In this document: positions 1,253 through 51,303 of the stretch, piece by piece | Numbering within the stretch: position 1 is the first letter of the stretch | How the letters are laid out: each line of letters begins with the position of its first letter | From: a virus | Taxonomy: Duplodnaviria; Caudoviricetes | IMG/VR virus record: IMGVR_UViG_3300050011_000546 | Span: 1 to 51,303 of that record | Reading direction: 5' to 3' (one strand) | Length of the DNA: 51,303 bases | Notes under the pieces: model-generated | What the model saw: only the letters and a program-made list of their open reading frames with translations | Databases searched by the model: none | Told to the model about the DNA's origin: nothing | Translations under genes and position numbers: made by a program

Positions 1253-1579
1253 TCATTTCTGCGGAACGAACCCTGACCGCTCCAGAACGCGGTCCAGCCG
1301 GTCGCCAAGCCTCTCGATGGCCTGGGTCAGCCGATCCTCAACCTCTCGCATGACTTCGCGATGGATGTATTCCCGCGCGATCTGCTCACGATAAAGCGCG
1401 AATGAGGCCGACAGCAGCGTCGCCTTTTCGTTGGCTTCCTTGGCGTCATCCTCGGCCTCCGACGCGGTGACTTCCGCTTTGGTCAGTCGCGACGAAAGCG
1501 ACATCCAGAAACCGAGAATGGCGAGGGCCGGGACGATGAGAGCGGCGGCAAAGCTGGCCCATTGCGGTATTTCGTTCAT
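1253..1579 (-). CDS. Phage lysis-module membrane protein (N-terminal TM plus coiled coil)
   Basis: One TM helix then coiled coil; last gene of the lysis cassette, overlapping the upstream gene. Confidence 0.6.
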   Translation of the reverse strand: MNEIPQWASFAAALIVPALAILGFWMSLSSRLTKAEVTASEAEDDAKEANEKATLLSASFALYREQIAREYIHREVMREVEDRLTQAIERLGDRLDRVLERSGFVPQK

Positions 1580-1959
1580 CGCTTGATGATCCGCGCGACG
1601 TTTTCAAATCCGCGCTTTACGAAGTAGAAGGAAACAACGAGGTTGGCGGTGGTCGCCGCAAAACCGCCGAGCGCTTCGGTCACGCCGAGCCCCATTACCT
1701 TGTCCCAGATCAGCAGCTTGCCGAAATAGAGTGCGACGAAATATCCCATCAGCTTGTCGGGCTCATACCAGTGCCCGATCTCCGCGACGCGATATTGCAT
1801 GATCGCGTTGGTCTCCGCGACCTGCGCTGCGATTTCGCCCGCTGCCAAATCGGCGGCGATTTTGCTTTCGACGTTGCCCGCTTTCAGCTTTGCATTGTAG
1901 GCGTCGATCAACCCCTTGATGACGGGGCCGCCGAGAAAACTTAAGATAGCCATCCACAT
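1576..1959 (-). CDS. Putative holin (3TM-holin-like)
   Basis: Hydrophobic segments and C-terminal FYFVKRGFE; downstream of endolysin. Confidence 0.6.
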   Translation of the reverse strand: MWMAILSFLGGPVIKGLIDAYNAKLKAGNVESKIAADLAAGEIAAQVAETNAIMQYRVAEIGHWYEPDKLMGYFVALYFGKLLIWDKVMGLGVTEALGGFAATTANLVVSFYFVKRGFENVARIIKR

Positions 1960-1960
1960 T

Positions 1961-2203
1961 TCAAGGTGCTTTCCTGAGAGAACGCAGACGGGCGACGATG
2001 GTCACAATCGATATGCCCAGGAGGACGCGGCCGGCGGTCTTTGCATCGCCGATCGACGCGCTGATTTGATCCTTCAAGCCCGGGTCACCCAAGGCATCCG
2101 CGATGGAATCCAGACCCTGCAAGACAGCCCCGGCGAATGCGAGGAAGTAACCCCACGCAATCGTCAGGGAGTTCAGGCAGAAGGTTTTAGCCTTGGCCCA
2201 CAT
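1961..2203 (-). CDS. Small 2-TM holin-like protein
   Basis: MWAKAKTFCLNSLTIAWGYFL...VARLRSLRKAP; two TM segments; lysis cassette. Confidence 0.55.
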   Translation of the reverse strand: MWAKAKTFCLNSLTIAWGYFLAFAGAVLQGLDSIADALGDPGLKDQISASIGDAKTAGRVLLGISIVTIVARLRSLRKAP

Positions 2204-2205
2204 TT

Positions 2206-2370
2206 TTAGACCTTCTTGGCGACGGCCACGAGGGCATCCGCCTTGGCGTGAAGCTTGGCGGAAAGCGCATTGGCGCCAATCACCATTTGCTGGATTTTGT
2301 CTTTTCCGAACCAAATCAGCGCGCCGCCGCACCCGAAACCAAATGCGAAACCGATGGTGTAAATAGTCAT
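2206..2370 (-). CDS. Small membrane protein (54 aa, absent from the ORF track)
   Basis: Translated by hand: MTIYTIGFAFGFGCGGALIWFGKDKIQQMV...AKKV*; fills the gap between endolysin and holin. Confidence 0.65.
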   Translation of the reverse strand: MTIYTIGFAFGFGCGGALIWFGKDKIQQMVIGANALSAKLHAKADALVAVAKKV

Positions 2371-2373
2371 GGG

Positions 2374-3096
2374 TTATTTCCTTTTGAAAGTTGCCAGGAT
2401 GGCAGACAGAACGGACGCGATAGCCGCGCCAATCGAACCCTTTGACGGATTCGAAATCGAGGGTTTTGGAATGTCGGGAGGCGACGGATTGGGCGTGGAC
2501 GGCAGGATGACGATGGGCGGCATCTTGCCGTCGAAGCTGATGGTGCGGTCGAGCGCCATCATTGCCAGCAGCAGACCGGCGCAGCCGAGCTGCTGATCTA
2601 TCGCATTCGGATCGAATACGCCGTCACGGACGTATTTGCCGGACCTGTACTGATCGGTCCCCGACCAAATGTAGGGCGACGGCATCCCTCGCGAAGCGTA
2701 GCCAAGCCCGTTATATTGCTCCAGCATGGTTAGCGTGCCGCCGATGCTCCAGTCCTTGTTACGCGCGGCATAGGGAGCGCAGTTGACAAGAGCATCGATC
2801 GCCGCCTTTTCCCATGAATTGAACGGGCCACGTCCTGCGGGGACGTGAACGGAAACCCTGTTCCAGGGATCGCCCTGCGCCAGCGAAGCGGTCCAGTCCT
2901 GTGAAGATTCCCGCTCGTGGGCAACTGCGATGAAAGCCCACGGCACGCCGGTCTTGGCCGAAACCGTCTGATAGCGGCCCTTGGCATTCGGCAGGATCAG
3001 ATATTTCGCGACGGCGGTAAAACTTCCCGCTCGCAATGACCTGGCATTTGTCCAGCGGGAGGTGTTCGCTGCCTTTAGCGCTACGAGATCGGTCAT
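2374..3096 (-). CDS. Endolysin, lysozyme family (COG5526-like)
   Basis: IAVAHERES, VPAGRGPF, LEQYNGLGY, SPYIWSGT, GKYVRDG and QLGCAG motifs; start MTDLVALK. Confidence 0.85.
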   Translation of the reverse strand: MTDLVALKAANTSRWTNARSLRAGSFTAVAKYLILPNAKGRYQTVSAKTGVPWAFIAVAHERESSQDWTASLAQGDPWNRVSVHVPAGRGPFNSWEKAAIDALVNCAPYAARNKDWSIGGTLTMLEQYNGLGYASRGMPSPYIWSGTDQYRSGKYVRDGVFDPNAIDQQLGCAGLLLAMMALDRTISFDGKMPPIVILPSTPNPSPPDIPKPSISNPSKGSIGAAIASVLSAILATFKRK

Positions 3097-16287: not shown

Positions 16288-16511
16288 TATCTTGATTCCT
16301 TATCCATGATCACTTGGTCCTCAGTTTTTATCGAATGCGCGTAGGTGAGATTTTTCTTGTATCTCCCCGTCGCAGGTCGCCGATAATTTCAGGATATTTT
16401 GTGCAGAGGCAGCGGACCGTCGTATCTGCGCTGCGTCTGTAAAGACGCGAGCATCTCAAGCAAGCGGCCGTTCTGCCGTCACATACTTCGGGATCGCAGC
16501 AAGACGCGAAT

Positions 16512-17238
16512 TCATTGATCGTCGGATTGTTCGGAAAGAATTCTCGCAACTAACGATCGGATCGGACGGCGAGCCTGCGAAGATTGCATATCGTCCCAAG
16601 CTTCTGGCGTTTGTCCGTTACTCTCTGCCATCGGTTGAACTTGGTTCTGCTGCATTTGTAGCGCGAGCAGCCTGCCGAGCAAGCCGCCCTGCAGACGATA
16701 TTCGGGTGCGCCGTTCAGAGTAGAAACGGAATCGATGGCCGGCTGAAACCGGCCCTGCTGAGACAGCATGCTGAGCCTGCCGAGTAAGCCGCCGCCAGGT
16801 TCGTCTGTCGCCTGGCCTGAGAGATTCTTCGTTACAATAAAGGAGCGGTCGTACGGGGACTCAAAATAGCCCGGCTCATCATAAGGGTTTCCCCTCGGGG
16901 GATCCACCTCATGCAGTGGACGTTCAGGCGGCGGAAAGGGATTTTCATTTCTCGGAGGTGAAAGCGATGGCGGAAGCCACGTGGGTAGCGCGCGTGGAAT
17001 ATCCTTCGAACTTGGTGCTGCAGGAATTGGTGGATCCCATATATGAAGATACAGGCAGCTGTTGCTGCGGCTGATTTTGCGGCGGATTGCCAAATGTATT
17101 TGGACTTTCCGGAGGTGGGATCCACCAAGGGAGGCGCGGAGGAGGTGGAGTTGGTGGTTTCCGGAAATCGGGTATTGTCGAATCCCGCAATTGCGAATTA
17201 GGTGATTCAGGGAAATAGTCTCTGAAGGAATAGGCCAC
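16512..17238 (-). pseudogene. Proline-rich class C protein, frameshifted; paralog of 22053-22595
   Basis: HEVDPPRGNPY.EPG.FE.PYDRSFIVT and two GGLLGRL motifs; N-terminus in a different frame (shift near 17050). Confidence 0.6.
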
Positions 17239-17379
17239 GTGTTTGCTCTCCAATAGGTCTATCGTTTGACGTGCAGCTCGTTTGATTAGGTTGCTTTGAT
17301 TCAATTCTTCGAGCTCTGTGCGACGAGCAGTATTGCTCCAGGATTCGTGCCCGCGAAGCCTCAGGCGCTTGAGAGCCCA

Positions 17380-18282
17380 TTACGGATCGTAGATCACGTG
17401 GGGCAGAGACAGCTTCGACACCATGGCATCGAGCTCGGCCTGGTTATTTGGATACGCTTCATAAACGATCTCCGTCTTGAGCGAGCTGGCGTAATACCTC
17501 GGATTCCAAGTCCACAAAACGTCCGGATATGTGCCCGTCCCCTCAAACATGCTTCTTAATTTTTTTCTGATGATGAAACTTTCCGGAGGGTCGTCGAACC
17601 AGGGATCGATGGCCCTACCGCTGTAAAATTTGTAATTCAGATACCGACGATATTTGTCTCCATCCTGAACCTCAGGCGGAGCATCGGAGCATGGCGATTT
17701 CTCCAGGCGTTTGGGGCTATCATCTCTCGACACGACCAGTGACGGACACCAGAACGGATCGACCGTATAGTGCCATGCGACTACGGTGTCCTTCAGCACA
17801 AAGGTCTTCGTTGATGCCAGAAGGACGTAACTGGCACAGGCGGAAAAGCAATAATCGTAGACGACGACGGTTGCACGACGGTCTCGCAGCAAATCGGCGA
17901 GCGTGATAGCAACGGCTATATCGCCACCGGGGCTTCGAACCACGAAAAGACCTCCTTCTTCAAGGTCGTTAGCTAGCGAAACATCCTGTTTGGCAAAAAT
18001 CTGACCGTCAAAACACAAGACCCGCTTGTCGAGATCGAGTGCCATGGGACGCTTCACATTGCCGCGACAAAATTCGACGGCGCGAGCATAAACGCTGAAG
18101 TCGGGCTGTTGGGCGCGCGAAGTCTCCGGGTCCCAGCAAACAAGGAATGATGCGCTCAGCGCTGCAAAATTTGCGACGCGGAAAATGAAAGAGCGTCGAC
18201 GGCTAAAGCTAGCACGATAAAACGTATTCGCTCCACACTCAGCGGCGCTAAGCTTCAAGCGTGACATGTTCCACGTCCACAC
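17380..18282 (-). CDS. Exported ClpP/crotonase-fold-like protein, paralog 1 (start uncertain)
   Basis: VVRSPGGD, YDYCFSACASY, VAWH; signal-like segment. Confidence 0.6.
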   Translation of the reverse strand: MWTWNMSRLKLSAAECGANTFYRASFSRRRSFIFRVANFAALSASFLVCWDPETSRAQQPDFSVYARAVEFCRGNVKRPMALDLDKRVLCFDGQIFAKQDVSLANDLEEGGLFVVRSPGGDIAVAITLADLLRDRRATVVVYDYCFSACASYVLLASTKTFVLKDTVVAWHYTVDPFWCPSLVVSRDDSPKRLEKSPCSDAPPEVQDGDKYRRYLNYKFYSGRAIDPWFDDPPESFIIRKKLRSMFEGTGTYPDVLWTWNPRYYASSLKTEIVYEAYPNNQAELDAMVSKLSLPHVIYDP

Positions 18283-18348
18283 TTCGCTACAAAGACGCCA
18301 TCGTGTTAGCGTAGGTCACGATTTGAGCGATCACGGGCAGCTTGACGA

Positions 18349-18753
18349 CTAAGTCGATTTCCGGAGGCCTAGCCGCCGCCTGGAGAGCTGCCTTTCTTTC
18401 TTTTTGATCTCAGCGTCGAGGATTTTGCATAGTTTCCGATGAAACTCGAGTCCGTGGCAAAAAGGCAGGTATCTCGGAAAAACAACTTCGTGCGGCACAA
18501 CATCTGAACTAATACTTTTTAGTCGATCGAGTGACTTTCGAATTACGGTACTCGCAATCGTCAGCGCTTGAAGTCCGTCGACACCGCGCGCCAAACGAAT
18601 CCGATTATCCTTCAGGCCATGGGTTTCAAACGCACACGACCATTCGCGATCCCCTTCCCGCAAACGTGGAAATCCCAAGCGAGCCAGCCCCGGGCGCTGT
18701 TTCACACCAAATCGGAACTCATATTCCACCAGAGAAGGCTCACTCCATTTCAC
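18349..18753 (-). CDS. Hypothetical protein (DUF6968-like, possible immunity)
   Basis: WSCAFE...GVDGLQAL motif. Confidence 0.5.
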   Translation of the reverse strand: MKWSEPSLVEYEFRFGVKQRPGLARLGFPRLREGDREWSCAFETHGLKDNRIRLARGVDGLQALTIASTVIRKSLDRLKSISSDVVPHEVVFPRYLPFCHGLEFHRKLCKILDAEIKKKERQLSRRRLGLRKST

Positions 18754-18860
18754 TTGGCTACTCCGGTTTTTCCTTCAGCCAAAAAAAGACCAACGTGGTC
18801 ATTTTCCCTCGGCCAGCGCGCCATCTCGGAGCCGCTTGCGAGCAATATGCAGCGAGGTCA

Positions 18861-19517
18861 TCATCCCATGTCGTCGGGAGGTTCATATTCCGGAGGCTCG
18901 TTCGATCTGGTATCACCTGCTCGCTTCGGGCGGAACTCATTATATCGGGCAACAACGTCATCTGAAATAAGTCCTGGTGGTGCACGATCAACAAAGTCAC
19001 GCTCGCGTCCGACATCAGGAACGTCCTTCATCATTTGCAGAGACATGATTTCTTCAAGGACCCGCGACAGCGCTTCACCGCGACCCAGCTGCAAAAGTAT
19101 CCGTGCCTTGACACCAAGTGCCTCTCTTCGGAAAAAGCCAGTGCGATGGGCTCTGCGCAGAGCCAGATCGATACATTTCAACGCTTCTTCGGGATCATCC
19201 AAAAAATCGAGATACTGTGTTGCCTTTCCGATCGGGAAACGAACATCGTCAGGAAACTGCTCGATCATCTCGTCTTGAATCTGCAGAGCTTCGCGATCCC
19301 TTTCGGCTTCAGACAGAAGCCATACAAGATTTAGAGCTAAATCATAGCGATCTTTGCCACTCTCCGCGCGCATCCGCGCTGATACGGCGTCAATCACCAG
19401 ATTAAGCGGAAAGTCCTGGCGTAGCTCTTTGATCCATCGATCAAGCTTCACGTATGAATCGACAGACCTGATAACAACCTCCCATCGGTCCGAGTGGAAG
19501 TAATGCCTGCTGAGCAA
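18861..19517 (-). CDS. TPR-like protein, candidate immunity
   Basis: Helical repeats (EEALKCIDLAL, ALGVKARILLQLGRGEAL); downstream of the 19801 cargo. Confidence 0.55.
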   Translation of the reverse strand: MLSRHYFHSDRWEVVIRSVDSYVKLDRWIKELRQDFPLNLVIDAVSARMRAESGKDRYDLALNLVWLLSEAERDREALQIQDEMIEQFPDDVRFPIGKATQYLDFLDDPEEALKCIDLALRRAHRTGFFRREALGVKARILLQLGRGEALSRVLEEIMSLQMMKDVPDVGRERDFVDRAPPGLISDDVVARYNEFRPKRAGDTRSNEPPEYEPPDDMG

Positions 19518-19656
19518 CGAAGACTATCGTTGCGATCTTACGCTTCCGGCCGGAACCGGTAACATGAGCGCGAGTGGCTACGCCGCGCGCCCTCGGCACA
19601 ATTTTTAAGGCGGCCTATTATCGCTCCGACGCAGATTGGCTACCGTCGCCAACTTG

Positions 19657-19671
19657 GAACAAATAGAGAAC
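19657..19671. promoter_or_regulatory. Alphaproteobacterial LexA (SOS) box
   Basis: GAAC-aaataga-GAAC, intergenic, upstream of 18861-19517. Confidence 0.7.
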
Positions 19672-19800
19672 GATGTCAAGATGACTCCGCTTAAAGATCT
19701 GCATCCGTCCCTACGCTGTCGATACGATTGCCAAACCGTTCGCTGCTCGCCGATCCCACTACAAGACCATCGAAAATTGGCTAACTTTGAAGTTAGCCTA

Positions 19801-21222
19801 CTATCGACTCACGTTGATCCATTCGTCCTCGTCACGGGTACTCCATTCTGGCGGTTCAAACCGAGGGATTCGGCCGCCGTTCCGATTGCACAAGTCCCAT
19901 CGACGTATTGCGCGGTTTATGCAAGCTTGCAGCATGCCTTCTGCAGCGTAGTCATCTTCACGTTCATAACACCTCCCTATCTCATCCGATTTTCGCTGCT
20001 CGCACACATCGTCATCATCGCCGCCACCTCTTCCGATAGAATAGGCTTTACGTGATTGTATGCGGGAGGTGTTCCGGCTACGAGGATTAGCCTGCATGTA
20101 GATTGGCGGTAGGGGCGCGGGCGTCATTGGGGGGATCGATATCCCTCGTCCCGGCGATCCCGATTGAACTGCATTCATCGTAGGTGAAGCAGCGAACCAC
20201 TCTGGTAGTGACTTCTCGCCGGAGGGCCCAAAGAATCTACCGCCCGTCATTGGCGGCAAACTCATTGGATTCTGAAGGTTGAGGGTCGCTGCACCGACTT
20301 GGGATGTGGATGGATGCGACATAACACCGGGAAGATCGCCGTTCCCTGCGTCACGGAGCAACTTCATGGCGGAAGGAAAGCGCTCTTCAAGGCCAGCAGC
20401 AATCGGTCGGCTGACACCGTATCCTGCGGCCCCCGCGCTCGCCGGCAGCGAAGGCAAGCCATTGCGCAGCGCGTTGACGAGCGGCCGCGCAAAAATTCCA
20501 CCGGCCGCCGCGGGCGTCGTAGGCGCCAGCAAAGACACGGCATTAAATGCGCCGCTCGGACCGAGTTCACGCGCCTGATTTTGTCTGAATGCTTCCTCTT
20601 CCGTCGAGAGGACGCTCGTCGCGTCGATCGAGCCTTGTACTGCTTGTGCGATTCCGTTCAGCGCGCCTTTGAGCCCCGAAACCATGCCAAAAGGCTGGGG
20701 ATGATCCCAGTAGGCCTGCATGCGACCGGAGAGTGTGCTCGCCGGTTCCGAAGCACGATCAATCGGCGGAGCGGTACGGACTGGGCCGAGCGAGCCATCG
20801 CGTCCAACGAGAGTCCCCACAAGTCGTCTGAAATTCGGATCCGGCGGCTGGGATGGCACCTGTCCGTTGGCTCCCGCAAACGGCTGATATGGGTGCGCTT
20901 GCAGCGCGACCAACCGGCCGAGCAGGCCGCCTTGCGGAGCGCCGTACCCGTCGGAATCAAGCTGGGGGGCGCCGTTTGGAGTCAAACTTGAATCAACAGC
21001 TGGCTGATTGCGGCTCTCCTGCATTCCCCGGAGCGAAATACCGAGCAGACCGCCAACGGGACTATTATCGCTTCCGGGATAGTTCGGGGAAGTAGATTGC
21101 AATTGATCGTCAGGTAACTGGGAAAGACCGGTGTTAGCCGGCGGCCAAAAGCGGTTTGTAGCGGCGCCATCGTCTTGTTGCATTGGCGGATAGATATAAA
21201 CGCGTCGCAGGTTGTCACCCAT
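19801..21222 (-). CDS. Class C cargo with Cys-rich C-terminal domain
   Basis: GGLLGRLVALQ, FRRLVG; C-terminal 4-Cys acidic domain; coupled to the upstream GNAT-like gene. Confidence 0.55.
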   Translation of the reverse strand: MGDNLRRVYIYPPMQQDDGAATNRFWPPANTGLSQLPDDQLQSTSPNYPGSDNSPVGGLLGISLRGMQESRNQPAVDSSLTPNGAPQLDSDGYGAPQGGLLGRLVALQAHPYQPFAGANGQVPSQPPDPNFRRLVGTLVGRDGSLGPVRTAPPIDRASEPASTLSGRMQAYWDHPQPFGMVSGLKGALNGIAQAVQGSIDATSVLSTEEEAFRQNQARELGPSGAFNAVSLLAPTTPAAAGGIFARPLVNALRNGLPSLPASAGAAGYGVSRPIAAGLEERFPSAMKLLRDAGNGDLPGVMSHPSTSQVGAATLNLQNPMSLPPMTGGRFFGPSGEKSLPEWFAASPTMNAVQSGSPGRGISIPPMTPAPLPPIYMQANPRSRNTSRIQSRKAYSIGRGGGDDDDVCEQRKSDEIGRCYEREDDYAAEGMLQACINRAIRRWDLCNRNGGRIPRFEPPEWSTRDEDEWINVSR

Positions 21223-27769: not shown

Positions 27770-27781
27770 CTACTTGTTCCC

Positions 27782-29069: not shown

Positions 29070-29070
29070 G

Positions 29071-29433: not shown

Positions 29434-29456
29434 TGAAAAGCCTCCGAAGAGATCCG

Positions 29457-29487: not shown

Positions 29488-29510
29488 AGGGGTTAAGTGG
29501 ATGACGAGGC

Positions 29511-31524: not shown

Positions 31525-32077
31525 GGGCCACGCTCCCAGTATGGGAGTACTCGATTAATTTGGGTGATAGATTGTTGGCGCTCGACTGATGCCAATTTGT
31601 ACCCATTCCTTGTGCTGAGGTAGGAATAAGCACAAGATTACCTGCGCCGTGATTGAAGGGAATTAAGTTCACGACCGCCACGCTGCCTGACCACATCTCG
31701 CGGGAGTTCATAACGGCATTTCTTATACCTGCGGAAGAGGTGCTCGCAGTCAGCACAAATACCAAGTGCTGATTTAAGCTGACATTTTCATACTTTGCGC
31801 GCTCGATGAGCTGTGCATGAAGGGTGCGGGGTAATCTAAGGAGAATCTTCCCGCTCGGGAGATCGTCGAGTTGGGGCTTTGACGGATCGGGGATAGGGTT
31901 GCCAGCATTGCTGGCCGCTAGTTGCCAAGCATCGATAGCATCGCGCAATTCTGCTACGGCTTCCTCTTGGGTTTCGCCGAAAGCGGAGCAGCCCGGCAAA
32001 TCTGTAGCGACGGCAATAAATCCTTCGTCCTCGTCGCTGTAAAATACCTGAGCCGGATATCGTTGTGCGTCGATCAC
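31517..32077 (-). CDS. hicB: HicB family antitoxin
   Basis: DLPGCSAFGETQEEAV plus RHH-type SGKILLRLPRTLH...VSLNQ. Confidence 0.88.
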   Translation of the reverse strand: MIDAQRYPAQVFYSDEDEGFIAVATDLPGCSAFGETQEEAVAELRDAIDAWQLAASNAGNPIPDPSKPQLDDLPSGKILLRLPRTLHAQLIERAKYENVSLNQHLVFVLTASTSSAGIRNAVMNSREMWSGSVAVVNLIPFNHGAGNLVLIPTSAQGMGTNWHQSSANNLSPKLIEYSHTGSVAHG

Positions 32078-32343
32078 TTTTTACTCTCTGCTTCCGTTTC
32101 GTTTTCGGGCCAGTACTTCGCAATCATTTTTTGCAGTTGCTTGGCTTGATATGGCTTAATCATACCGTTCCTGTTCTGAAAATTCAGAAGGTCTGACTCC
32201 CCAGATTTTGAGTATGCTGCATGTGAACCCTTTTGGCCCTTGGCATTGAAGCCGAGCCACCCAGCGACCTTGCAAGCATCGTCGTAGCGAACATTTTTCG
32301 CGCTTTCCCGGATCGATGCGATGAGTGTTTCACGGGTTGACAC
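32074..32343 (-). CDS. hicA: HicA family toxin
   Basis: GF...KGSH...KPYQAKQ; overlaps hicB. Confidence 0.82.
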   Translation of the reverse strand: MSTRETLIASIRESAKNVRYDDACKVAGWLGFNAKGQKGSHAAYSKSGESDLLNFQNRNGMIKPYQAKQLQKMIAKYWPENETEAESKK

Positions 32344-41995: not shown

Positions 41996-42334
41996 TTAGC
42001 AATAACTCATATCAAAAAATGACAGCAACGGTTCACCAAGCAACCAGGCAGCCCAGGCAATCAAGTAGACAAGCAAATAGTTTCGTTGCGCGAGCCAATA
42101 TAAGCCCAGCAGCACGGCTATATCCACGCAGATTAACGTGAGATGAGTGAATAGGTATCGCTCAAAACTTCCGTACATCCAGCAATATTCAACGCCTCTT
42201 TCGCCAATGAACTCACGCGTCGCGTTCAAAGTTAAGAGAAGAACCATCGCGCCTAGACCAACCAAAGCAGCCGCGGCATAAATTGGATAGAACATCCATC
42301 GCTGGCGAGACGTAGATATGTTTTTGTTGGACAT
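41996..42334 (-). CDS. 3-TM membrane protein, candidate immunity for the Tlde1-like cargo
   Basis: Hydrophobic; directly upstream of the cargo and downstream of a 24-bp motif. Confidence 0.55.
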   Translation of the reverse strand: MSNKNISTSRQRWMFYPIYAAAALVGLGAMVLLLTLNATREFIGERGVEYCWMYGSFERYLFTHLTLICVDIAVLLGLYWLAQRNYLLVYLIAWAAWLLGEPLLSFFDMSYC

Positions 42335-42517: not shown

Positions 42518-43546
42518 TCAGCGCCGATAGAACGGACTGAAGATCGGTGGCGGCGAAAACTCCGTGGGGTCGTCGGGATCGATGCCTGTCAAAGAAGCTA
42601 TCCATTTATCAATGTTGCTGAGCGCCGAAGCGTAGTTTGACGGCGTGAAGGCCGGCGGCGGCTTGGTCGGATCGAATACGAGTGCTGGCGAATTATCGGG
42701 GCTGGATGGCGCGAGCGTTGGCTCCGCTGCAACAGACGCCGGATCAGGAACCGCTGATCTCCTGTACTTCTCCAGCGCACGCAAGAGCGGAGAATTGGCA
42801 TCGCTGGCGCCGCTTGCGGGAGCGGAGCCCCAGTTTCCGAAGCGGTTGTCAAACGATTCGGGACGATCGGAGGGGGCTGGCGCGGAAATGCCTACCGGAG
42901 CGGAGCCCCATTTTTCAAAGCGATCGCCGAACGAATTTTGACGATCGGGAGAAAGAACATCATTATGCGGAACGAACGGCACGGCGGGCGCTCTTGCCAC
43001 GTCCGGTGCGTTACCAAATCCGTTGCCTGCATTGACGCCGAGACCCTGCAAGTATTGTTGGTATTCTTGAAGATAAGCCGGCGGACTTGGATTGGGGTCG
43101 ACGGGGCCTTGTCGATCCCAGAAGGCGGTTGGATTTACTATATTTCCTGCAGGATCCTTCAATTGATAGTGAACGTGTTGTTGCTCGGTGCCGGTGTTGC
43201 CCATCGTACCGATCAACTGGCCTGCGGCAACCGGGTCGCCTGCCGTCAGAAACTGAGTATGGGTATGCAATATTTCGTGAGAAAAGCCATTCTTGTCCCG
43301 TATGGCTATTCTTCCAAAAGTGCCCTCTCCCGGTTTTGTTGTCACGATTCCGGAGACTGGCGAGCGCAGCGCCGGGTGCGTGAGATTGATTCCCGTCGGT
43401 CCAACCGAATAGTTGAAATCTACGCCGCCGTGAGGAATCGATGAGGGCGGCGTTCTACCCTTTACCGCTCCATACGGACTGGTGATTTCGGGCGAAACGC
43501 CGCCGATCGGAGGCAACACTCGCCGCATGATGCCTTTCCACGACAT
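42518..43546 (-). CDS. Class A cargo with M23 metallopeptidase domain
   Basis: ITSPYG, HGGVD (HxxxD), GQLIGTMGNTG, HVHY (HxH); ends PPIFSPFYRR; no signal peptide. Confidence 0.85.
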   Translation of the reverse strand: MSWKGIMRRVLPPIGGVSPEITSPYGAVKGRTPPSSIPHGGVDFNYSVGPTGINLTHPALRSPVSGIVTTKPGEGTFGRIAIRDKNGFSHEILHTHTQFLTAGDPVAAGQLIGTMGNTGTEQQHVHYQLKDPAGNIVNPTAFWDRQGPVDPNPSPPAYLQEYQQYLQGLGVNAGNGFGNAPDVARAPAVPFVPHNDVLSPDRQNSFGDRFEKWGSAPVGISAPAPSDRPESFDNRFGNWGSAPASGASDANSPLLRALEKYRRSAVPDPASVAAEPTLAPSSPDNSPALVFDPTKPPPAFTPSNYASALSNIDKWIASLTGIDPDDPTEFSPPPIFSPFYRR

Positions 43547-43849: not shown

Positions 43850-44536
43850 TTACGTCGACCGATCGGATATACCGTAGAGAAACCAGCAACCTTGCGTCTT
43901 CCGAAAACTATAGAATACTATCACTCCAGTGTCCGGCAACGTTACTAAAACAGTCACGCGTGAGGGGTCGGTTATCGTCTCTTCCGGAAAAACGTTTTCA
44001 CCGGTCTTGGAGTTTTTGATCGTCGTAATTTCGGTTCTAAGTCCCTGTTTTTTCATCTGCAACAAAGTCGGATAAACCGTGCCACTCTTCGGATAATAGT
44101 TTGGTATCTTTTCGAACTTGTTGACCATGCTCGACTTGAAAGCGTCGTTTTCCTTGTCCGCGCCGATTAGACTCACGTCTAAAAGTCCGAATTCGAGCGG
44201 CAGGTGCGTGTATTTCCGTTGCAACACGGGGCTATTTGAAAAGGCGCGCAAGAATAGGGTAAAATCCGCAGACGGACATTTATCGCTCTTGCCTGCTACC
44301 GTGACGTTTGGCGTCGCAGGACGTCCATCCGGATCTGCCAAGGCGGGACCAGATACGGACACCATCCCGGCAAGGAGGAGCGACCTGAAGCCGTAGCCCA
44401 ACCCGGTTGTCGATCCGATACAGCCCGAGGTAGCCTTCAGGATACTTATTATGACAGCAAAATCTGCTCGAACCCGCGGCCGAGCGCACGGCACCTCGCC
44501 GATATACTGCAAACCATTCAGCAGATTCTCGCCCAT
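43850..44536 (-). CDS. Exported protein, candidate M23 immunity (DUF4348-like; start uncertain)
   Basis: ALA signal cleavage; CPSADFTLFLRAFS...YSFRKTQGCWFL. Confidence 0.6.
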   Translation of the reverse strand: MGENLLNGLQYIGEVPCARPRVRADFAVIISILKATSGCIGSTTGLGYGFRSLLLAGMVSVSGPALADPDGRPATPNVTVAGKSDKCPSADFTLFLRAFSNSPVLQRKYTHLPLEFGLLDVSLIGADKENDAFKSSMVNKFEKIPNYYPKSGTVYPTLLQMKKQGLRTEITTIKNSKTGENVFPEETITDPSRVTVLVTLPDTGVIVFYSFRKTQGCWFLYGISDRST

Positions 44537-44767: not shown

Positions 44768-46054
44768 TCACACCCACCCCTGCTCCGCATACCGGATCGC
44801 CCGGTTGAAATTTCCCGCCCGGCCCGGCTCCTCATAACAAATCGCCATCAGACCCAGCGCGTCGGCGGCGTGGCTGGACCAATCGTGCTCCGGCCCAAGC
44901 CCGACGTTGCGGGTCTCGTCCTTGCGTTCGTGATAGAAGCCGATGGCGTCGCGGCCCGGTTCGGTGGTTTCCTCGTTCCACCAGATCTGCGCGCCCAGCC
45001 GGCGCAGCGCCTCGATGCGCATCATCGCGGCGCCCTTGCCCTGGTTCCTCACCGGCGGCTCGACCCTGAAGCCGGCTTCGCGCAGATGATCTTCATAGCG
45101 CTTGCCGGTGATGTTGTTTTCGTTGACGCCGTCATGCGGCAGGTGGACGATGACATCGTGATAGCCGCGCGAGCGCAACCAATTGACGTGAAACGCCAGC
45201 ACCTGGCCGACCGCCTCGTAGTAATCGAGCACGCGGATTTCCTGCCCCACCCATTGCACGATCCAGATCGTGAAGGCATCGGCAAAAGCGCCGGCGCCGC
45301 CGATGTCGACAAAGGCGCGCAGCGGCAACAGCGGATCGGCGGTGACTTTGCCGATCCGGCCCTTGGCTCGCGCCTCCGACAGCATCGCTGCAAAATATGC
45401 GCCCTCGAAGGCGCTGACGTAGTCGCCCTCCCATATGTGGTCGTAGCGATCGGGATAGAGCTGCAGATCGGTTTTGCGTTCGTCTTCCAGCACGGAAGGA
45501 AACCACGGATTGTCGCGCCAGTTGGCCTTGACGACGATCGATCCCTGCGGCTCGCGCCGCCGGAAAAAATCGTCAATCGCATCGCTCTTCCGTCGGGGAT
45601 TCCAGCTCGCCCACAGCTCTGATTGGTTGGCGCGGATGGTGGGGCGAAGCAGCGAGAGACTGCGTGCGCTCAAGGTTTGCGCTTCATCGACCCAGGCGAT
45701 CCGAAAGCCCTCCAGCGACTTGATCGACTCCGAAGTGTGATCCTGCATGCCGCGAAAGATGATCATGCCGTCGCCGGGCGTTTCGATCCGGTCGGCGAAA
45801 CTCTTGAAGCGGTGGCCGAGGCCGAGTGAACCGATCTTGCTCTCGATCAGCCGCTTGGAGGATTGCGCCAGTGTCTTCTGCGCCTCGCGAATGCAAACCG
45901 CCAGCATGCCCTTCTCGGCCTGGCAGGCCTCAACCAGCATCTCTCCGAAAAAATGCGACTTGCCTGAACCGCGTCCCCCCCAAGCCCCTTTGTAGCGCGA
46001 TGGCTGCAGCAGCGGTTCAAAGATCTTGGCTGTCGGGATTTTCAGGGTGGACAA
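44768..46054 (-). CDS. terL: Terminase large subunit (PBSX-like)
   Basis: Walker A GGRGSGKS, Walker B AWVDEA, SWNP, nuclease DIG...D and HDWSSHAADA; TTG start. Confidence 0.93.
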   Translation of the reverse strand: MSTLKIPTAKIFEPLLQPSRYKGAWGGRGSGKSHFFGEMLVEACQAEKGMLAVCIREAQKTLAQSSKRLIESKIGSLGLGHRFKSFADRIETPGDGMIIFRGMQDHTSESIKSLEGFRIAWVDEAQTLSARSLSLLRPTIRANQSELWASWNPRRKSDAIDDFFRRREPQGSIVVKANWRDNPWFPSVLEDERKTDLQLYPDRYDHIWEGDYVSAFEGAYFAAMLSEARAKGRIGKVTADPLLPLRAFVDIGGAGAFADAFTIWIVQWVGQEIRVLDYYEAVGQVLAFHVNWLRSRGYHDVIVHLPHDGVNENNITGKRYEDHLREAGFRVEPPVRNQGKGAAMMRIEALRRLGAQIWWNEETTEPGRDAIGFYHERKDETRNVGLGPEHDWSSHAADALGLMAICYEEPGRAGNFNRAIRYAEQGWV

Positions 46055-46550
46055 TGACGCGCTCGATTCTGTAGGCCACCTCCGCGTCCATTCAGCGCCG
46101 ATAGAGCGGACTGAAGACCGGCGGCACCTGAAACCGCGTGGGATCGTCGGGGTCGACGCTTGCCAGCGAAGCGATCCATTTTTCGATGCTGCCGTTGCCG
46201 GTTGCGGAAGAATAGTCAGGAGGAGCGAACATCGGCAGCACGGACTGGTATGGATTTGGTGCGTTGATGCCCGGAGAGGATGCAGGTGCTTGCGATTGGT
46301 CGGCGGTTAGCTGGTTCAGGTATTGAAGAAACATCTTGCTGTAGGAAGGCGCCGAATCCTGGGATTGCTGCGGAGTGTCCCCTGCCTCGGTTGAAGCCCA
46401 GTTTCCGAAGCGGTCGCCGAACGACTCCCCACGATCGGAAACGAGAAAACCGTTGGACGGAGATGGCGCTGCCGGTGCGCCGCTATCGAATGCGGATGTT
46501 CGCGGATCGTCGACGATTTGCCCGACCAAACGTCGCACTGGCAGTGGAGG
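46030..46550. repeat. ~520-bp direct repeat (cargo tail plus terS/terL junction); second copy at about 47865-48380
   Basis: Near-identical nucleotide sequence in both copies. Confidence 0.85.
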
Positions 46551-47174
46551 CTGACCGGGGGCGCGAACTCCGTCAGGCGCAACCGACCCGCTCAAAGGGA
46601 AAGGCATCGGCGTCGCGGTGTTGATAGGATTTGCTAACTGCTTTTCAAAACCAGGGACGTAGAAGGACCGGGTTTCGCCACTAACGGGATCGAACACCAG
46701 CTGACGATCAAATCTTTCCGGAAACCTGGTTCCCGGCCCAAAAAATCCCGCACGTTGCAGCGCCCCACCCGCAAAAGAGTTACTGTTTTGAGAGACCGGA
46801 CGATATTCATATCCGGTCGAATTCACCTCGTCGGCAAAGTCTTTCATCAGCGCCCAGCGGGAACTCAAATCATCGCCTTCGGCGACCATCGTATGCGTTT
46901 GATTCAGAGGAACATCGATATCTTCACCTGGCAAGGCTCGCAATCGCTGAAACGGCGAATCTCGATTGTTCGCGCCGTCTGAAAATATCTCTTCACGAAC
47001 AAATGCCCCCAGTTTATCGATATTGTGATCAAACTTGGTTTCCGGCACGCCCTGAAGCGTGTGGTGATAACCATCGGAGTCGACATAGTTCAGTACAATA
47101 TGATGCCCAAGCACAGAGCCTTGGTAAGGTACAGCGGTCGCATTGGCGTAGGTAAGAAAAATTCTTTCAGGCAT
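46092..47174 (-). CDS. Class A cargo with permuted papain-like (H...QNSNSF) domain
   Basis: GHHIVLNY ... YEYRPVSQNSNSF; ends VPPVFSPLYRR. Confidence 0.6.
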   Translation of the reverse strand: MPERIFLTYANATAVPYQGSVLGHHIVLNYVDSDGYHHTLQGVPETKFDHNIDKLGAFVREEIFSDGANNRDSPFQRLRALPGEDIDVPLNQTHTMVAEGDDLSSRWALMKDFADEVNSTGYEYRPVSQNSNSFAGGALQRAGFFGPGTRFPERFDRQLVFDPVSGETRSFYVPGFEKQLANPINTATPMPFPLSGSVAPDGVRAPGQPPLPVRRLVGQIVDDPRTSAFDSGAPAAPSPSNGFLVSDRGESFGDRFGNWASTEAGDTPQQSQDSAPSYSKMFLQYLNQLTADQSQAPASSPGINAPNPYQSVLPMFAPPDYSSATGNGSIEKWIASLASVDPDDPTRFQVPPVFSPLYRR

Positions 47175-47186: not shown

Positions 47187-47693
47187 CTACTTGTGGACCC
47201 ATCCGGCAGTGTAGATGTCGGGGCCCGCCTTTTTCTTGGAAACGTTGTATGTAAAGCCAACCAACACGTCATCGCTTGAGAAATGTATTAAATACTCTGT
47301 CGTGCGAGGCATATAAGATATTGAACGAATAAAATTCGATTTTCTGACCGCGTCCAGCAAGGCATCCACCTCACAATCCCGAAACGGGAAATATTTTTCA
47401 TTGAGATCATTATACGGAGTGATCCAATTTCTCTCTTTCGAAAGTAATTGGTCAAGTTCGGCGACATACGAAGAAACCTTCGCAATACACGAAGCGGAAT
47501 CGGCGCGGGCGCTCGGTGCTTGCGCCAAACACAAAAAGATCACACTAGCCGCTGCGACGCGACGTAGTCTTCGCTGCCTTCCCGTGGAAGCACGCATTTT
47601 TTCTTCTATGGAGATTTTGGTCATTTGAGCCATCGAAACGACGACGAAAACGGCGATCGAACCGTCACCACGAGTAGAAAGCTCGCCGATCAT
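47187..47693 (-). CDS. Exported protein, candidate immunity (start uncertain)
   Basis: Signal peptide ending ARA-DS; two Cys; upstream of the cargo. Confidence 0.6.
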   Translation of the reverse strand: MIGELSTRGDGSIAVFVVVSMAQMTKISIEEKMRASTGRQRRLRRVAAASVIFLCLAQAPSARADSASCIAKVSSYVAELDQLLSKERNWITPYNDLNEKYFPFRDCEVDALLDAVRKSNFIRSISYMPRTTEYLIHFSSDDVLVGFTYNVSKKKAGPDIYTAGWVHK

Positions 47694-47926: not shown

Positions 47927-49567
47927 TCAACGCCGATAGAGCGGACTGAAGACCGGCGGCACCTGAAACTGCGTGGGATCGTCGGGATCGACGCCTGCCA
48001 GCGAAGCGATCCATTTGTCGATGCTGCCGTTGCCGGTTGCGGAAGAGTAATCAGGCGGAGCGACGATTGGCGGAACAGACTGATATGGATTCGGGGCGTT
48101 GATGCCCGGAGAGGATGCAGGTGCTTGCGGCTGGCCGGCGGTCAGCTGGTTCAGATATTGACGAAACATCTCGCTGTAGGAAGGCGCCGAATCCTGGGAT
48201 TGCTGCGGAGTGTCCCCTGTCTCGGTTGAAGCCCAGTTTCCGAAGCGGTCGCCGAACGAATCCCCACGATCGGAAACTGGAAACCCGTTAGATGGCGCTA
48301 CCGGCGCGCCGCTCTCGAATGCGGACGTTCGCGAGTCATCGACGATTCGCCCGACCAGACGTCGCACTGGCAGTGGAGGCGGAGATCCATCCGCATCTGT
48401 CGTCGCGCTGCCGTACAGAGGCGGCGACGGGGATGCGGCCTGTGCGGAGGGGATCAGGCTATTCTCAATGTAACCCCCGGCGCCGCCCAGTAACCGTGCG
48501 GCCCGGCTTCTGGCAGCATACAGTCCGTCGGCGAGCTGAGAACCAAAGCCGGGCTCGGACGCGTTGGACGGTACGAGCGACGGCGCTGCGGCAACGGACG
48601 ATAGGCCGTCGGGAGCCTCCGATCGCCTGTATTTCTCCAGCGCACGCAGGAGCGGTGAATCCGTATCGCCGGAGTCGCCTGCCGGGACAGAGCCCCAGTT
48701 TCCGAAGCGGCTGTCGAACGTTCCGGAACTATCTGTTGACCCCCCGATTAGCGGCGAAGTAATCGCGCTATTTCCTATGATCCGCTCGAGCTCGCGGTTA
48801 CGAACCATCGAGGACAACCAGCCATCAGGCCCTGGGGATGGTACGATTTTATCCAATGCCTGCGGAAAGGACCCTGCGTGGGGATCGGCGTTCGTGGGAT
48901 CGGTAAATCCGACTGAGGGTGTGATGTTCCCGATAGTTGTCGATGCGACCAACCGACGAATGTCGCCGTTAAACGAACGGCCGAACGCAGTTTTAAATTG
49001 GTCGCCCGACGCGAATGCCTGACTTCCCTGAAGCGAATTACCCGGAACAGTCGCTGGCGGTCCATATGTAGAATCAAAATAATCCCGAACGCCCTTTGCG
49101 ATGAACGGAGGGTTTTTTGGATTGCTGCCGAAGTTCGGGCCGGCCGTCTTGGGGTTGACCAACATATTATATCCACCGGCGGCGGCCATAAGGGTGGTCG
49201 GCGAAAAGCCCGCGGCAGCTCCAATAAGACCGTAGGCGTAGGAAGCCGCTGGCGCGAATAAGCTCGCGAAGAGAGCATTCGACTGTCCATTATAGTTACG
49301 TTGGAGATCCCATGGACCTCCGTCCTTAACATTGCGACCAAAATCTAGGAAGGCGGCCGCAGTCGATTTAGAAGCGAGCGACTTGCCGAAGGCAATCGCG
49401 GCGGCCGGATCGAACGTTACCGGAAACCATATCTTGTTTCCTTGGGAGTCTACGACGTCATTGCCGAATCGGTCGACGATCGTCTTTGCCTGAACATTAA
49501 AAATTCGCGTTCTTTCGTTGGGTTCATCGGTGAGCCGCTGGGTAAAGGTTCGGAATTCCTGGGTCAT
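47927..49567 (-). CDS. Class A cargo with Ntox44-like domain
   Basis: NVKDGGPWDLQR...ASYAYGLIGAAAGF...FGSNPKN...IAKG; ends VPPVFSPLYRR. Confidence 0.7.
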   Translation of the reverse strand: MTQEFRTFTQRLTDEPNERTRIFNVQAKTIVDRFGNDVVDSQGNKIWFPVTFDPAAAIAFGKSLASKSTAAAFLDFGRNVKDGGPWDLQRNYNGQSNALFASLFAPAASYAYGLIGAAAGFSPTTLMAAAGGYNMLVNPKTAGPNFGSNPKNPPFIAKGVRDYFDSTYGPPATVPGNSLQGSQAFASGDQFKTAFGRSFNGDIRRLVASTTIGNITPSVGFTDPTNADPHAGSFPQALDKIVPSPGPDGWLSSMVRNRELERIIGNSAITSPLIGGSTDSSGTFDSRFGNWGSVPAGDSGDTDSPLLRALEKYRRSEAPDGLSSVAAAPSLVPSNASEPGFGSQLADGLYAARSRAARLLGGAGGYIENSLIPSAQAASPSPPLYGSATTDADGSPPPLPVRRLVGRIVDDSRTSAFESGAPVAPSNGFPVSDRGDSFGDRFGNWASTETGDTPQQSQDSAPSYSEMFRQYLNQLTAGQPQAPASSPGINAPNPYQSVPPIVAPPDYSSATGNGSIDKWIASLAGVDPDDPTQFQVPPVFSPLYRR

Positions 49568-50190
49568 TTAAAGTCGCAATAAACGGTTGTTGAATAGAAG
49601 CTTCCATACAGCGGAACCACCGAGGTGCTACATTTGACCGGTTCGTTCGGTAGCGGCATGTCCATCGGATCTTGCAAGCCTCTCGCTATGCTGTTGTTTT
49701 CGTCGAAGACAAGAAAGTAATTGGTGCGCCAAGCCACAAACCCGCTGCTACCCCAGTCAAAAACCACAAATTTCGGCGAGCTATCGCTCTCTTCAACTTT
49801 GGTGACATAGAAGCTCTTATTCATTTGAAAGCGAAATTGATCGATAACGTAGAAGGCTGCTTCTGGTCCTATAAAGGGATAGATCGCTAATAGCGTGACA
49901 CAGGCAGGCAGGGCTGGCGATGCCAGCCAGCTTTTTCTGAAAAGGCGAAAAAATATCAGTACGGCGATACGAACGAAGACGATTATCGCGAGAGCGCCCC
50001 CGACAAAAAACAGCAAAAGATTTACAATTATCGTCTCGAATCCGTCACTGTGCGCCGAAACATAATAAGCCACTGCATGCGAGAGCAGGAATACTGACGT
50101 AACAATAACCAGCGTTCTGTCGAGAATGACGAACTTTCGCGAATCATCGACGTATGCGGCAACTGGCATGGATACCTCAAAAAAATGCAT
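49564..50190 (-). CDS. Membrane immunity candidate, distantly related to the YDTTG family
   Basis: About 3 TM helices, LVFDE, YGSFY; overlaps the cargo start. Confidence 0.6.
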   Translation of the reverse strand: MHFFEVSMPVAAYVDDSRKFVILDRTLVIVTSVFLLSHAVAYYVSAHSDGFETIIVNLLLFFVGGALAIIVFVRIAVLIFFRLFRKSWLASPALPACVTLLAIYPFIGPEAAFYVIDQFRFQMNKSFYVTKVEESDSSPKFVVFDWGSSGFVAWRTNYFLVFDENNSIARGLQDPMDMPLPNEPVKCSTSVVPLYGSFYSTTVYCDFK

Positions 50191-50470
50191 GCGATGCCTC
50201 TTTGACGAAGCAGTGCCGCGCTAATTACTCCCCTCCGTCTGGATTTTTGTGCTCCTCAGCGTTAGTTATCGCCTACAATTTCAGGATATTTTGTGCAAAA
50301 GCTATGTACACTGGATTCAGGAATCACGCTGCGGTGCATTGAGTATGCGGACGGAAGCTCACCGGCCCTCAAGGCCCCGCTTGCGAAAGTATTGCTGTTC
50401 TGACGAGCGCCTCTGTAGGACATCGTTCAATATCGCGTTTTTCGATCTTCCTCGCCTCGTAAATACTCGG

Positions 50471-50860
50471 TCACTGATTTCTCCTACGTAAATCTTCAAC
50501 CACTCGAATCAGTGCGATGAGAAGGGCTGCAGTAGTTATTATTGCGTAGAACTCCAGCGAAATCCTCGCTAAGCCGATAACGAAACTCGGTATGTGATGC
50601 CTGAAAGCGTCGAGCGATAGGCAATCATCAAAGATGCTGCAAAGGTTGCGGTATTTCATCTCATGAACGATTATCGCCACGGGAAAACATCGCCGCTAAG
50701 GCAGGTGGCCAATACAGCAGGAATTGACGTTCGAGTTCGAACGTCAACTCCTCTATCCTCCTTCGCCAAACTAACGCCGATAGCGCCAGAAGAAGTACCG
50801 CCAACGAATATGCAGCGGCCACGAACAAAAGCGCGTACCTGACAAAACGGTAATCACAGA
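50471..50860 (-). pseudogene. Degraded membrane-protein gene
   Basis: Hydrophobic low-GC fragments downstream of a 24-bp motif. Confidence 0.35.
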
Positions 50861-50933
50861 GAAAGAACGTCGACTCCTATATTTTGCAAACTACTGCCAG
50901 CGCTTTTTGTGAAACTTCCTGTTATTTATCGCC

Positions 50934-50957
50934 AATAATTTCGGGATTTTTTGTGCA
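50934..50957 (-). promoter_or_regulatory. 24-bp motif TGCACAAAA(T/A)ATCCTGAAATT; other copies at 7473, 8504, 10406, 10630, 16382, 42453, 47741, 50274
   Basis: Nine copies, all in the same orientation, each upstream of a cassette or ejection gene. Confidence 0.7.
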
Positions 50958-51000
50958 GTCCCGCCGCACGGCTGCCCCATCGCCCAAATCGGATCTGCGC

Positions 51001-51303
51001 CTATAGAGCGGACTGAAGATCGGCGGCATCGGAAACCGCGTGGGGCTCGAGAATTTTAGCTGTCGGATTTCCAGGGTGGACAATGACGCGCTCGATTCTG
51101 TGGATCAATTCCAGCGCGCCGTCATTGCCGTTCTCGATCGCCTGCGTGGCCTTGCCCCAGCCGCGATCCAGGATCGCATTGGCTGCGGCCACTCTTGCCG
51201 CCGGCGTCGCCTGGGGATGCCGCATCACACCGACCAGGACATTGATCGCGGTCCTGGTGTGGCTTCGCGCCAGCGAGCGGATTTCGGTGACGGCCTTGGG
51301 CAT
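51001..51303 (-). CDS. terS: Probable terminase small subunit
   Basis: ARVAAANAILDRGWGKA motif; its 3' end overlaps a copy of the terL start. Confidence 0.7.
   Translation of the reverse strand: MPKAVTEIRSLARSHTRTAINVLVGVMRHPQATPAARVAAANAILDRGWGKATQAIENGNDGALELIHRIERVIVHPGNPTAKILEPHAVSDAADLQSAL

Follow-up and report, generated by a model that had tools for sequence, protein, structure and literature searches.

The window analysed here, the whole 51,303 bases of an IMG/VR provirus record (IMGVR_UViG_3300050011_000546, Caudoviricetes), carries nearly all of its genes on the minus strand and is, to judge from the protein families that it encodes, the late operon of an SU10-type podovirus. Pfam annotation of 60 window proteins, with PHROGs run on 30, recovered the SU10_portal (E values 1.4e-129 and 7.8e-55), SU10_MCP (8.6e-98) and SU10_adaptor (1.1e-35) families in operon order, and set among the core genes are 13 genes for tagged cargo proteins, together with adjoining small genes, orphan copies and recombination scars (Table 1). 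The original prediction, made from the letters and a list of open reading frames (ORFs), had described a podovirus-type morphogenesis operon interrupted at about six sites by at least a dozen cargo genes. The SU10 families and the 13 tagged cargo bear out the operon and its cargo, and the cassette junctions number about nine: TerS/TerL, TerL/portal, portal/32585, 32585/capsid, 27338/25252, 23777/21222, 21222/15217, 15217/11438 and 10637/4017, with genes given by their first coordinates.

We separated core from cassette by tblastn of all window proteins against 79 retained capsid-centred loci, drawn from a collection of species genomes with 107 capsid relatives, mostly from Bradyrhizobium with some from Xanthobacteraceae and unnamed Alphaproteobacteria. 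Core genes matched 41-79 of the 79 loci (the exception, 11438-12622, a scaffold candidate, matched 29), and most cassette genes matched 0-3. The commoner cassette genes were 22730-23728/17380-18282 (20 loci), the ORFs with the class B leader described below (17), 19801-21222 (11) and 26375-27337 (9). Five complete Bradyrhizobium genomes have the element in no more than 22-40 kb, so that some 30 kb of the window would be cassette DNA. At the head of the operon, tblastn finds TerS residues 1-79 conserved among 30 of the 80 TerL-centred viral loci and 11 of the 79 genome loci, and the TerS 3' end continues into a junction copy and a remnant of the class A tag; TerL has at least 599 relatives in IMG/VR.

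The portal is split into ORFs of about 190 and 555 amino acids (aa) in the window, where stop and start overlap by one base, and in close relatives (also L197, 19031-21087); in five genomes 1.4-5.4 kb of cassette DNA separates the halves, and in distant relatives the portal is a single unsplit ORF of 713-826 aa. Among cultured phages the nearest relative is Bradyrhizobium phage ppBeUSDA76-2, whose capsid is 73% identical; this temperate podophage has been observed by electron microscopy and sequenced from particles (PMC10127595). Given that this particle-forming phage has the same split, the split portal is compatible with particle formation. The larger portal half of ppBeUSDA76-2 is unannotated in its record.

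Five ORFs, which we term class A, carry a C-terminal tag ending ...PP[IV]FSP[LF]YRR, preceded by DRFGNW repeats and PLPVRRLVGR. The family is rare (24 proteins in 5.8 billion), and 27 aligned members share about 160 C-terminal residues with at least seven different N-domains: M23 in seven members, Ntox44, Tlde1, SLT and YkuD in one each, the others unnamed. Of the domains named in the original prediction, Ntox44 and, in class C, DUF4258 score above their Pfam cut-offs in the window, and M23 matches at E 1.5e-11; the predicted Tlde1 domain falls below its cut-off, and the 'papain-like' label for 46092-47174 has only an Atlas lead to TseH-like proteins behind it. The existence of intact Tlde1-tag fusions of 371-373 aa (P0012, P0013) identifies the Tlde1-like ORF and the tag-only ORF of the window as a broken pair. 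The N-domains of 5447-6676 and 47927-49567 match weakly at the level of motifs (E 0.8, a lead only), and PDB sequence searches of 46092-47174 and 5447-6676 returned nothing usable.

Class B is defined by an N-terminal leader of about 45 aa, M-x-D-[YF]-SLVPVD-x-QPDF...SLVPVDHDPF, common to 26 aligned and 60 database proteins. Three window ORFs carry it, every one starting in overlap with a copy of the portal 3' end, and 27 class B ORFs follow the portal in 4 of the 80 viral and 17 of the 79 genome loci. The linkers behind the leader are disordered and Gln/Pro-rich, and no Pfam domain was found on leader or linkers. The tips of the 26 aligned proteins include WHH (5), Colicin-DNase (5), Tox-ART-HYD1 (2), CHAP (1) and also DUF4951, to which the database search adds AHH and DUF4329. 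Because the tips vary and the ORF after the WHH tip encodes a SUKH-1 immunity protein in all four cases tested, class B is a genuine polymorphic toxin family. Of its three units in the window, the first holds an intact neighbour gene beside a toxin remnant, and the other two pair with exported proteins of 268-272 aa, a pairing that recurs in L146. The C-terminal domain of the 35901 protein has 23 relatives among 1.84 billion representatives, none with a name, and PDB sequence searches of 35901-36527, 33899-34585 and two ORFs of L186 gave nothing usable.

The distribution of the leader bears directly on how class B is delivered. It matches 18 of 151 Bradyrhizobium genomes, and the capsid gene is present in only five of those, with a decayed element in one more (L192). 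Thirteen leader loci (L183-L191, L193-L196) form one conserved host neighbourhood, flanked by a 518-aa gene beside an Lrp-like regulator and by a 183-aa gene that precedes an HrpB-like helicase; they show no portal scar, and phage proteins of the window are missing within 10 kb of them. In these stand-alone copies one conserved toxin type, ending ...LLSVREYKGY, predominates, with an exported protein encoded next. The SU10 portal was absent from all eight stand-alone-leader genomes tested (two positive controls matched), and the window capsid was unmatched in all 12 such genomes lacking the element. The leader would thus work without this capsid, so that class B probably does not require capsid delivery and may instead be a soluble toxin released at lysis. 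Tagged proteins mostly unlinked to the phage cluster, named in the original prediction as a finding that would refute it, are therefore what we observed for this class. A 522-aa ORF upstream of the stand-alone leaders, considered as a second portal, was rejected when codon-position GC showed that it is the antisense of a host gene. CHAP-type class B toxins (L187, L188, L196, L109) end ...PGGLLVYRRYEP, combining GGLL and YRR motifs that resemble the class C and class A tags.

The class C motif, GGLLG[RM], is found in five window ORFs of the ejection-protein region; it occurs eight times on the operon strand of the window and never antisense, and one to four times, again never antisense, in each of five relatives. 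In relatives it stands at the end of cargo encoded between the portal halves, ...GGLLGMIQDYMRNNAY. Two class C ORFs start MGLFD-x-YFDP, and one of them ends in a DUF4258 domain and is followed by a small acidic ORF. The class C N-terminus aligns with the start (AGLLDYIFDP...GLLSRL) of a 497-aa late protein of ppBeUSDA76-2 (E 6.7e-4 and 1.7e-6) that follows the ejection-protein homologue in that phage. It matches 5 of the 151 Bradyrhizobium genomes, with five of six matches inside the element. Packaging of class C is plausible because the tag copies the N-terminus of an ejection-region late protein and stays inside the element, and we consider its capsid delivery likely. Capsid delivery of class A, which gave only five weak partial matches in the 151 genomes, is possible. 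Of the three conserved tags proposed originally, the sharing holds, but they are sets of short motifs, including DRFGxW and RRLVGR, rather than a clean trio.

Most cargo genes had also been said to sit next to an immunity-like gene. This holds for the 5447-type domain, immediately upstream of which lies a 6779-type gene in 9 of 9 loci, and for the SUKH-1 genes of relatives; for the other window pairs an immunity role is suggested by position, size and membrane or export features (the 49564-50190 protein, for example, had no Pfam or PHROG match). In L004 the 5447-type/6779-type pair sits between 32585 and the capsid gene, not near the fibre, and judged from such arrangements the variable domain and its neighbour gene move together. 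Copies of a 24-nucleotide (nt) core (operon strand CTGCACAAAATATCCTGAAATTAT), mostly 40-110 nt from the start of a candidate protective gene, number nine and lie inside a conserved leader of about 60 nt (7456-7497, 8487-8528, 10389-10430, 10613-10654, 16365-16406, 42436-42477, 47724-47765, 50257-50298 and 50917-50958); those at 50257-50298, 47724-47765 and 42436-42477 precede the immunity candidates 49564-50190, 47187-47693 and 41996-42334. The SOS link presumed by the proposal to induce with mitomycin finds no echo in the window, which holds four LexA-type boxes against 1.73 expected, a count reached in 9 of 100 shuffles and so not above chance. A pair of similar GTTC-N7-GTTC boxes occupies intergenic DNA ahead of accessory cassettes, in minus-strand orientation (19657-19671 and 23723-23737).

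Several scars suggest how the cassettes came to be where they are. The junction of the TerS end with the TerL start is present in triplicate (near 51070, 47880 and 46050), the portal 3' end in three copies, each at a class B start, and three further units in the array of membrane proteins have the 3' end of 10637-11278 at their head; the tag-only ORF 41156-41449 and the toxin remnant 38003-38203 are displaced or repeated fragments. Orphan copies and toxin remnants are thus present, as had been noted. We also found, as predicted, no MuF, Rhs, PAAR, VgrG or CdiA domain in the 60 proteins, and no N-terminal hydrophobic segment on the cargo. With a constant part and swappable tips, adjacent immunity genes and displaced fragments all found, the polymorphic toxin layout seen at the outset, in the sense of Zhang et al. 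(2012), stands, and there is good support for regarding the cassettes as polymorphic toxins.

The relatives give some indication of what kind of element carries these cassettes. The genome of ppBeUSDA76-2 has an integrase, recombination and early genes, and its late region is compact and keeps the core order of the window; the tag motifs are all missing from this phage. In the window, no integrase or replication genes were seen, and in five of five complete Bradyrhizobium genomes no tyrosine integrase lies within hundreds of kb of the element. Of the 20 early-region proteins tested, 19 had no homologue in 80-kb stretches of these five genomes; the remaining one has a match in G005, 12 kb upstream of TerS. 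In one genome (G003) the genes on the upstream side of TerS look host-like by eye. The downstream flank is syntenic in three of the five (84-85% nt identity over 18-20 kb), and the element cores of those three are 87-90% identical. The ratio of nonsynonymous to synonymous substitution rates (dN/dS) of the core against the window is 0.08-0.19 (0.08-0.16 for the head-tail block 27338..30473), indicating purifying selection. Of 151 Bradyrhizobium species sampled, only 20 had the capsid gene, and decaying copies, whose portal, capsid or adaptor genes have frameshifts or stops, are present in G004 (L179-L182), G019, G006 and G032. These observations fit a late-gene-only element of long residence that selection maintains and that is often lost.

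We therefore considered which account best accommodates the cassettes, the tags and the element together. The one that we favour, at a probability of roughly 45%, is that the late operon of a temperate podophage of the SU10/ppBeUSDA76-2 type, from Bradyrhizobium-like bacteria, has become a platform for toxin/immunity cassettes, the delivery route differing by class. To judge from the scars, cassettes would enter and be exchanged by recombination between the constant toxin tag and core-gene ends that are repeated, namely the TerS/TerL junction, the 3' end of the portal and that of 10637-11278, a variable enzyme and its adjoining protective gene travelling as a unit. The toxin genes, which lack a secretion signal, would be read with the late genes, most protective genes would carry the conserved 24-nt motif upstream as their own, and the toxins would leave the producer when the element lyses it. 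Class C proteins would probably be taken into the head and be injected along with the DNA, given that their N-terminal signature is that of an ejection-region late protein; class A, mostly cell-wall enzymes with a proline-rich C-terminal tail, may be loaded in the same manner; and class B would probably be a soluble, lysis-released, bacteriocin-like toxin or take another route. The system may accordingly be a weapon against rival bacteria. Of the tagged-toxin weapon first proposed, the toxin/immunity cassettes stand and the match of the class C tag to a late-protein N-terminus lends support; a particle-bound class B tag does not stand.

Several points weigh against this account. No experiment or proteome places any cargo in particles, the similarity between class C and the phage protein is weak (29-38% identity), and the presence of that 497-aa protein in the ppBeUSDA76-2 virion is itself something that we infer from gene order. 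For the protective candidates of the window itself, no match to a known immunity family was found, and a homologue of the M23 neighbour (43850-44536) adjoins an M23 homologue at a single locus of 14. The 159 related loci lack the exact class A tag, and the five complete genomes lack its relaxed form too; only diverged forms, ...SLAG[VI]DP...RYLGRR ending 5447-type toxins, occur, in four loci. A simple scan calls no sigma-70-type promoter at the 24-nt motif, which as an exact pattern is absent from 182 related loci. Lysis genes were not identified in the window, where the sole holin lead fails the Pfam model, and as the window ends exactly at TerS, early genes may lie beyond it in this genome.

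An alternative that we regard as unlikely, if less so than the others below, is that Bradyrhizobium has domesticated a replication-less SU10-type particle as a chromosomally inherited 'capsid-type bacteriocin', whose toxins are loaded into the head on tags derived from the ejection region and injected into non-immune rivals. The element resembles RcGTA-type gene transfer agents in its late-gene-only cluster, the lack of a nearby integrase, purifying selection and a downstream flank common to three species; it differs from them in being podovirus-type and patchy (20 of 151 species), with some copies decayed. The podophage-like particles made by B. japonicum S06B contain DNA that maps evenly across the genome of the host (PMC10127595); this strain is not tied to the element.

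It is rather improbable, in our estimate, that all three tags are capsid-loading signals, as the original prediction taken in full would have it, by which a phage or domesticated particle injects head-borne toxins while immunity genes shield kin. All cargo genes lie inside the head/tail operon, with class B starts overlapping the portal stop, no secretion signals or other trafficking domains were found on the cargo, and the nuclease tips acting in the cytoplasm, together with cytoplasmic SUKH immunity, would require a route by injection; the predicted capsid delivery of MuF toxins (PMC3482391, PMC11699363) and the ejection proteins held in SU10 heads (PMC9509320) would be precedents. The stand-alone class B loci argue against it on every count given above, namely their distance from phage genes, the absence of an SU10 portal and of a match to the window capsid, and the prevalence of one conserved toxin type with an exported neighbour, as does ppBeUSDA76-2, a real phage relative without the tags.

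Much the same low credence attaches to the opposite proposal, that no cargo is packaged and that soluble bacteriocins resembling colicins and S-pyocins, along with cell-wall toxins, use the element for co-expression and lysis release, the tags being import or export signals. Colicins and S-pyocins are released by lysis, and S-pyocins are co-regulated with phage-derived particles. The system, relatives included, shares with them a C-terminal DNase/HNH tip (Colicin-DNase/HNH here), an immunity gene directly downstream and the lack of a signal peptide. The proposal would also explain the class B loci in genomes without the element and the disordered Gln/Pro-rich linkers, and exported or membrane protective candidates adjoin the cell-wall enzymes. 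It accords poorly, however, with a class C tag that resembles the start of an ejection-region late protein and stays inside the element, with the small size of the cargo proteins (about 170-550 aa), in which no receptor-binding or translocation domains were recognised, and with the lack of a confirmed lysis gene; unlike colicins and S-pyocins, class A has its polarity reversed and the genes lie within a capsid operon.

T4 Spackle, which inhibits the gp5 lysozyme, offers a parallel for the least probable reading, an ordinary phage arms race. In this reading, which we think very improbable, the cargo would be virion entry enzymes or injected early proteins and the neighbours superinfection-exclusion factors against the enzymes of related phages, which suits the mostly peptidoglycan-directed class A tips (M23, SLT, L,D-transpeptidase-like), the periplasmic or membrane protective candidates with their four-paralogue array at 6779-10280, and the ejected transglycosylase gp20 of SU10 (PMC9509320), but is contradicted by WHH, AHH, Colicin-DNase and ADP-ribosyltransferase tips with SUKH immunity, which are classic interbacterial toxins, by five complete-genome versions that, lacking early genes and a nearby integrase, are not infecting phages, and by the absence of cassettes from the active relative ppBeUSDA76-2.

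A literature search that left supplements aside found no description of this system, although parts of it have counterparts elsewhere. The internal proteins of phage T4 and Alt bear a capsid-targeting sequence on otherwise unrelated, fast-evolving proteins that are carried in the head and injected. The short shared peptide on unrelated proteins is like the window; unlike T4, no prohead protease or cleavage site was identified in the window, the cargo consists of toxin domains with immunity genes, and the phage is of another type. Delivery through the capsid is unproven here, and its closest precedent would be the MuF toxins. Jamet et al. reportedly described MuF polymorphic toxins of temperate phages in 2017. 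Capsid delivery of MuF toxins was predicted in 2012 (Zhang et al., PMC3482391), and a paper on Bxa/Apk2 in 2024 still called their biological role unknown (PMC11699363). As in the window, MuF toxin genes lie in the head-morphogenesis region beside the portal, combine a constant phage-derived part with a variable tip, and have adjacent immunity genes and poly-immunity loci, and their capsid delivery is likewise a prediction. The Phage_Mu_F domain occurs in none of the 60 window proteins and in none of 53 aligned tag-family proteins, however, and unlike MuF systems the window uses at least three unrelated short tags, one of them C-terminal, with its cassettes spread over about nine sites in a single operon; in five complete genomes the element is without early genes, and one tag is also found far from phage genes. 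SU10 has the same portal, capsid and adaptor families and keeps five ejection proteins (gp20-24, one a transglycosylase) in the head, to be released with the DNA; it is a lytic coliphage with an unsplit portal model, and the accessible text of its description reports no polymorphic tips or immunity genes (PMC9509320).

Delivery of polymorphic toxins by phage heads has been a prediction since 2012, and this element offers a sharper test bed for it, with three tag families and 13 cargo in one operon, cassette-rich cultured Bradyrhizobium, and a cassette-free, particle-forming relative as a control. The leader, GGLLG and DRFGxW motifs provide new handles for toxins missed by Pfam, and the cassettes may bear on competition among nitrogen-fixing inoculant strains in soil. 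They also carry a warning: location in a head operon and a shared tag do not show packaging, since one tag works without the particle.

Table 1. Core genes, tagged cargo and candidate immunity genes of the window
Feature	Coordinates	Strand	Basis or remark
Small terminase TerS (core)	51001..51303	-	tblastn
Large terminase TerL (core)	44768..46054	-	Pfam Terminase_3, E 1.8e-24
Portal ORF 1	40376-40951	-	SU10_portal profile 2-169
Portal ORF 2	38697-40376	-	SU10_portal profile 165-588
Core gene	32585-33022	-	follows class B units
Capsid	29511-30473	-	SU10_MCP
Core head-tail block ORFs	28432-28935 and 27338-27769	-	tblastn conservation
Adaptor	27782-28432	-	SU10_adaptor
Core gene	25252-25857	-	tblastn
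Virion structural protein	23777-25252	-	PHROG
Core gene	21222-21671	-	tblastn; GNAT-like by eye
DNA ejection protein homologue, S74 chaperone end	15217-16287	-	Pfam Peptidase_S74 and PHROGs name
Core gene	10637-11278	-	tblastn
Collar-domain fibre	4017-5006	-	Pfam Tail Collar
Distal conserved genes	2374-3237, 1961-2332, 1576-1959	-	relatives
Class A, Ntox44 cargo (aa 76-163), ends PPVFSPLYRR	47927..49567	-	Pfam 26.7 bits, cut-off 24
Class A, unnamed N-domain and constant region	46092..47174	-	TseH-like, DUF3750, Lnb_N leads
Class A, M23 peptidase and constant region	42518..43546	-	Pfam E 1.5e-11
Tlde1/YkuD-like cargo	41451-42002	-	Pfam Tlde1 26.4 bits, below cut-off 30.1
Class A, tag-only ORF	41156-41449	-	remnant
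Class A, unnamed toxin domain	5447-6676	-	tag alignment
Class B leader proteins	38372-38704, 35901-36527, 33899-34537	-	leader and portal 3'-end copy
Genes downstream of class B leaders	37503-38003, 36955-37341, 35012-35818, 33019-33837	-	position
Remnant of L151-type toxin	38003-38203	-	beside intact neighbour 37503-38003, first class B unit
Class C toxin, MGLFD/GGLLGRL N-terminus and DUF4258	14339-15217	-	Pfam 25.6 bits, cut-off 25
Small acidic ORF after class C toxin	14052-14339	-	position
Class C paralogue, toxin-less	12813-13619	-	N-terminal motif
Class C, Cys-rich end	19801-21222	-	motif
Class C	16512-17093	-	motif
Class C, in cassette inserted between 23777 and 21222	22053-22595	-	motif
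Other genes of the 22053-22595 cassette	22730-23728, 21788-22162	-	position
Other genes of cassette block 16328..21222	18861-19517, 17380-18282	-	position
DUF6968 protein, cassette block	18349-18753	-	Pfam
Four-segment membrane protein, immunity candidate for Ntox44 cargo	49564..50190	-	hydrophobic segments
Exported-looking small protein, immunity candidate for 46092-47174	47187..47693	-	position and signal-like stretch by eye
Immunity candidate upstream of M23 cargo	43850..44536	-	position only
Three-segment membrane protein, immunity candidate for Tlde1-like cargo	41996..42334	-	hydrophobic segments
Four membrane-protein paralogues	9876-10280, 9061-9642, 7811-8485, 6779-7453	-	each headed by ~116-nt repeat
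HicA-like and HicB pair, junction before capsid gene	31517..32343	-	Pfam: HicB above cut-off, HicA below

The window has a GC content of 52-61%, with no tRNA genes found and no Rfam family matched in it, and megablast of both its halves against cultured phages gave no match. PDB sequence searches of 1576-1959 and 2374-3237 returned nothing usable, and 1576-1959 was rejected as a holin, being an Atlas lead only that the Pfam holin model fails to match. No RNA datasets containing the stretch were listed. It is nearly complete in three peat metagenome runs, one of them from a separate study and identical in arrangement. In other peat and soil runs the junction repeats are points where contigs break or rejoin, and one weak joint in such a contig would delete the Tlde1 cassette, both possibly effects of assembly. 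At the distal end of the window a GNAT acetyltransferase lies on the plus strand (574-1041), and an acetyltransferase-like ORF (1-546 in the window) terminates the element in all five complete genomes.

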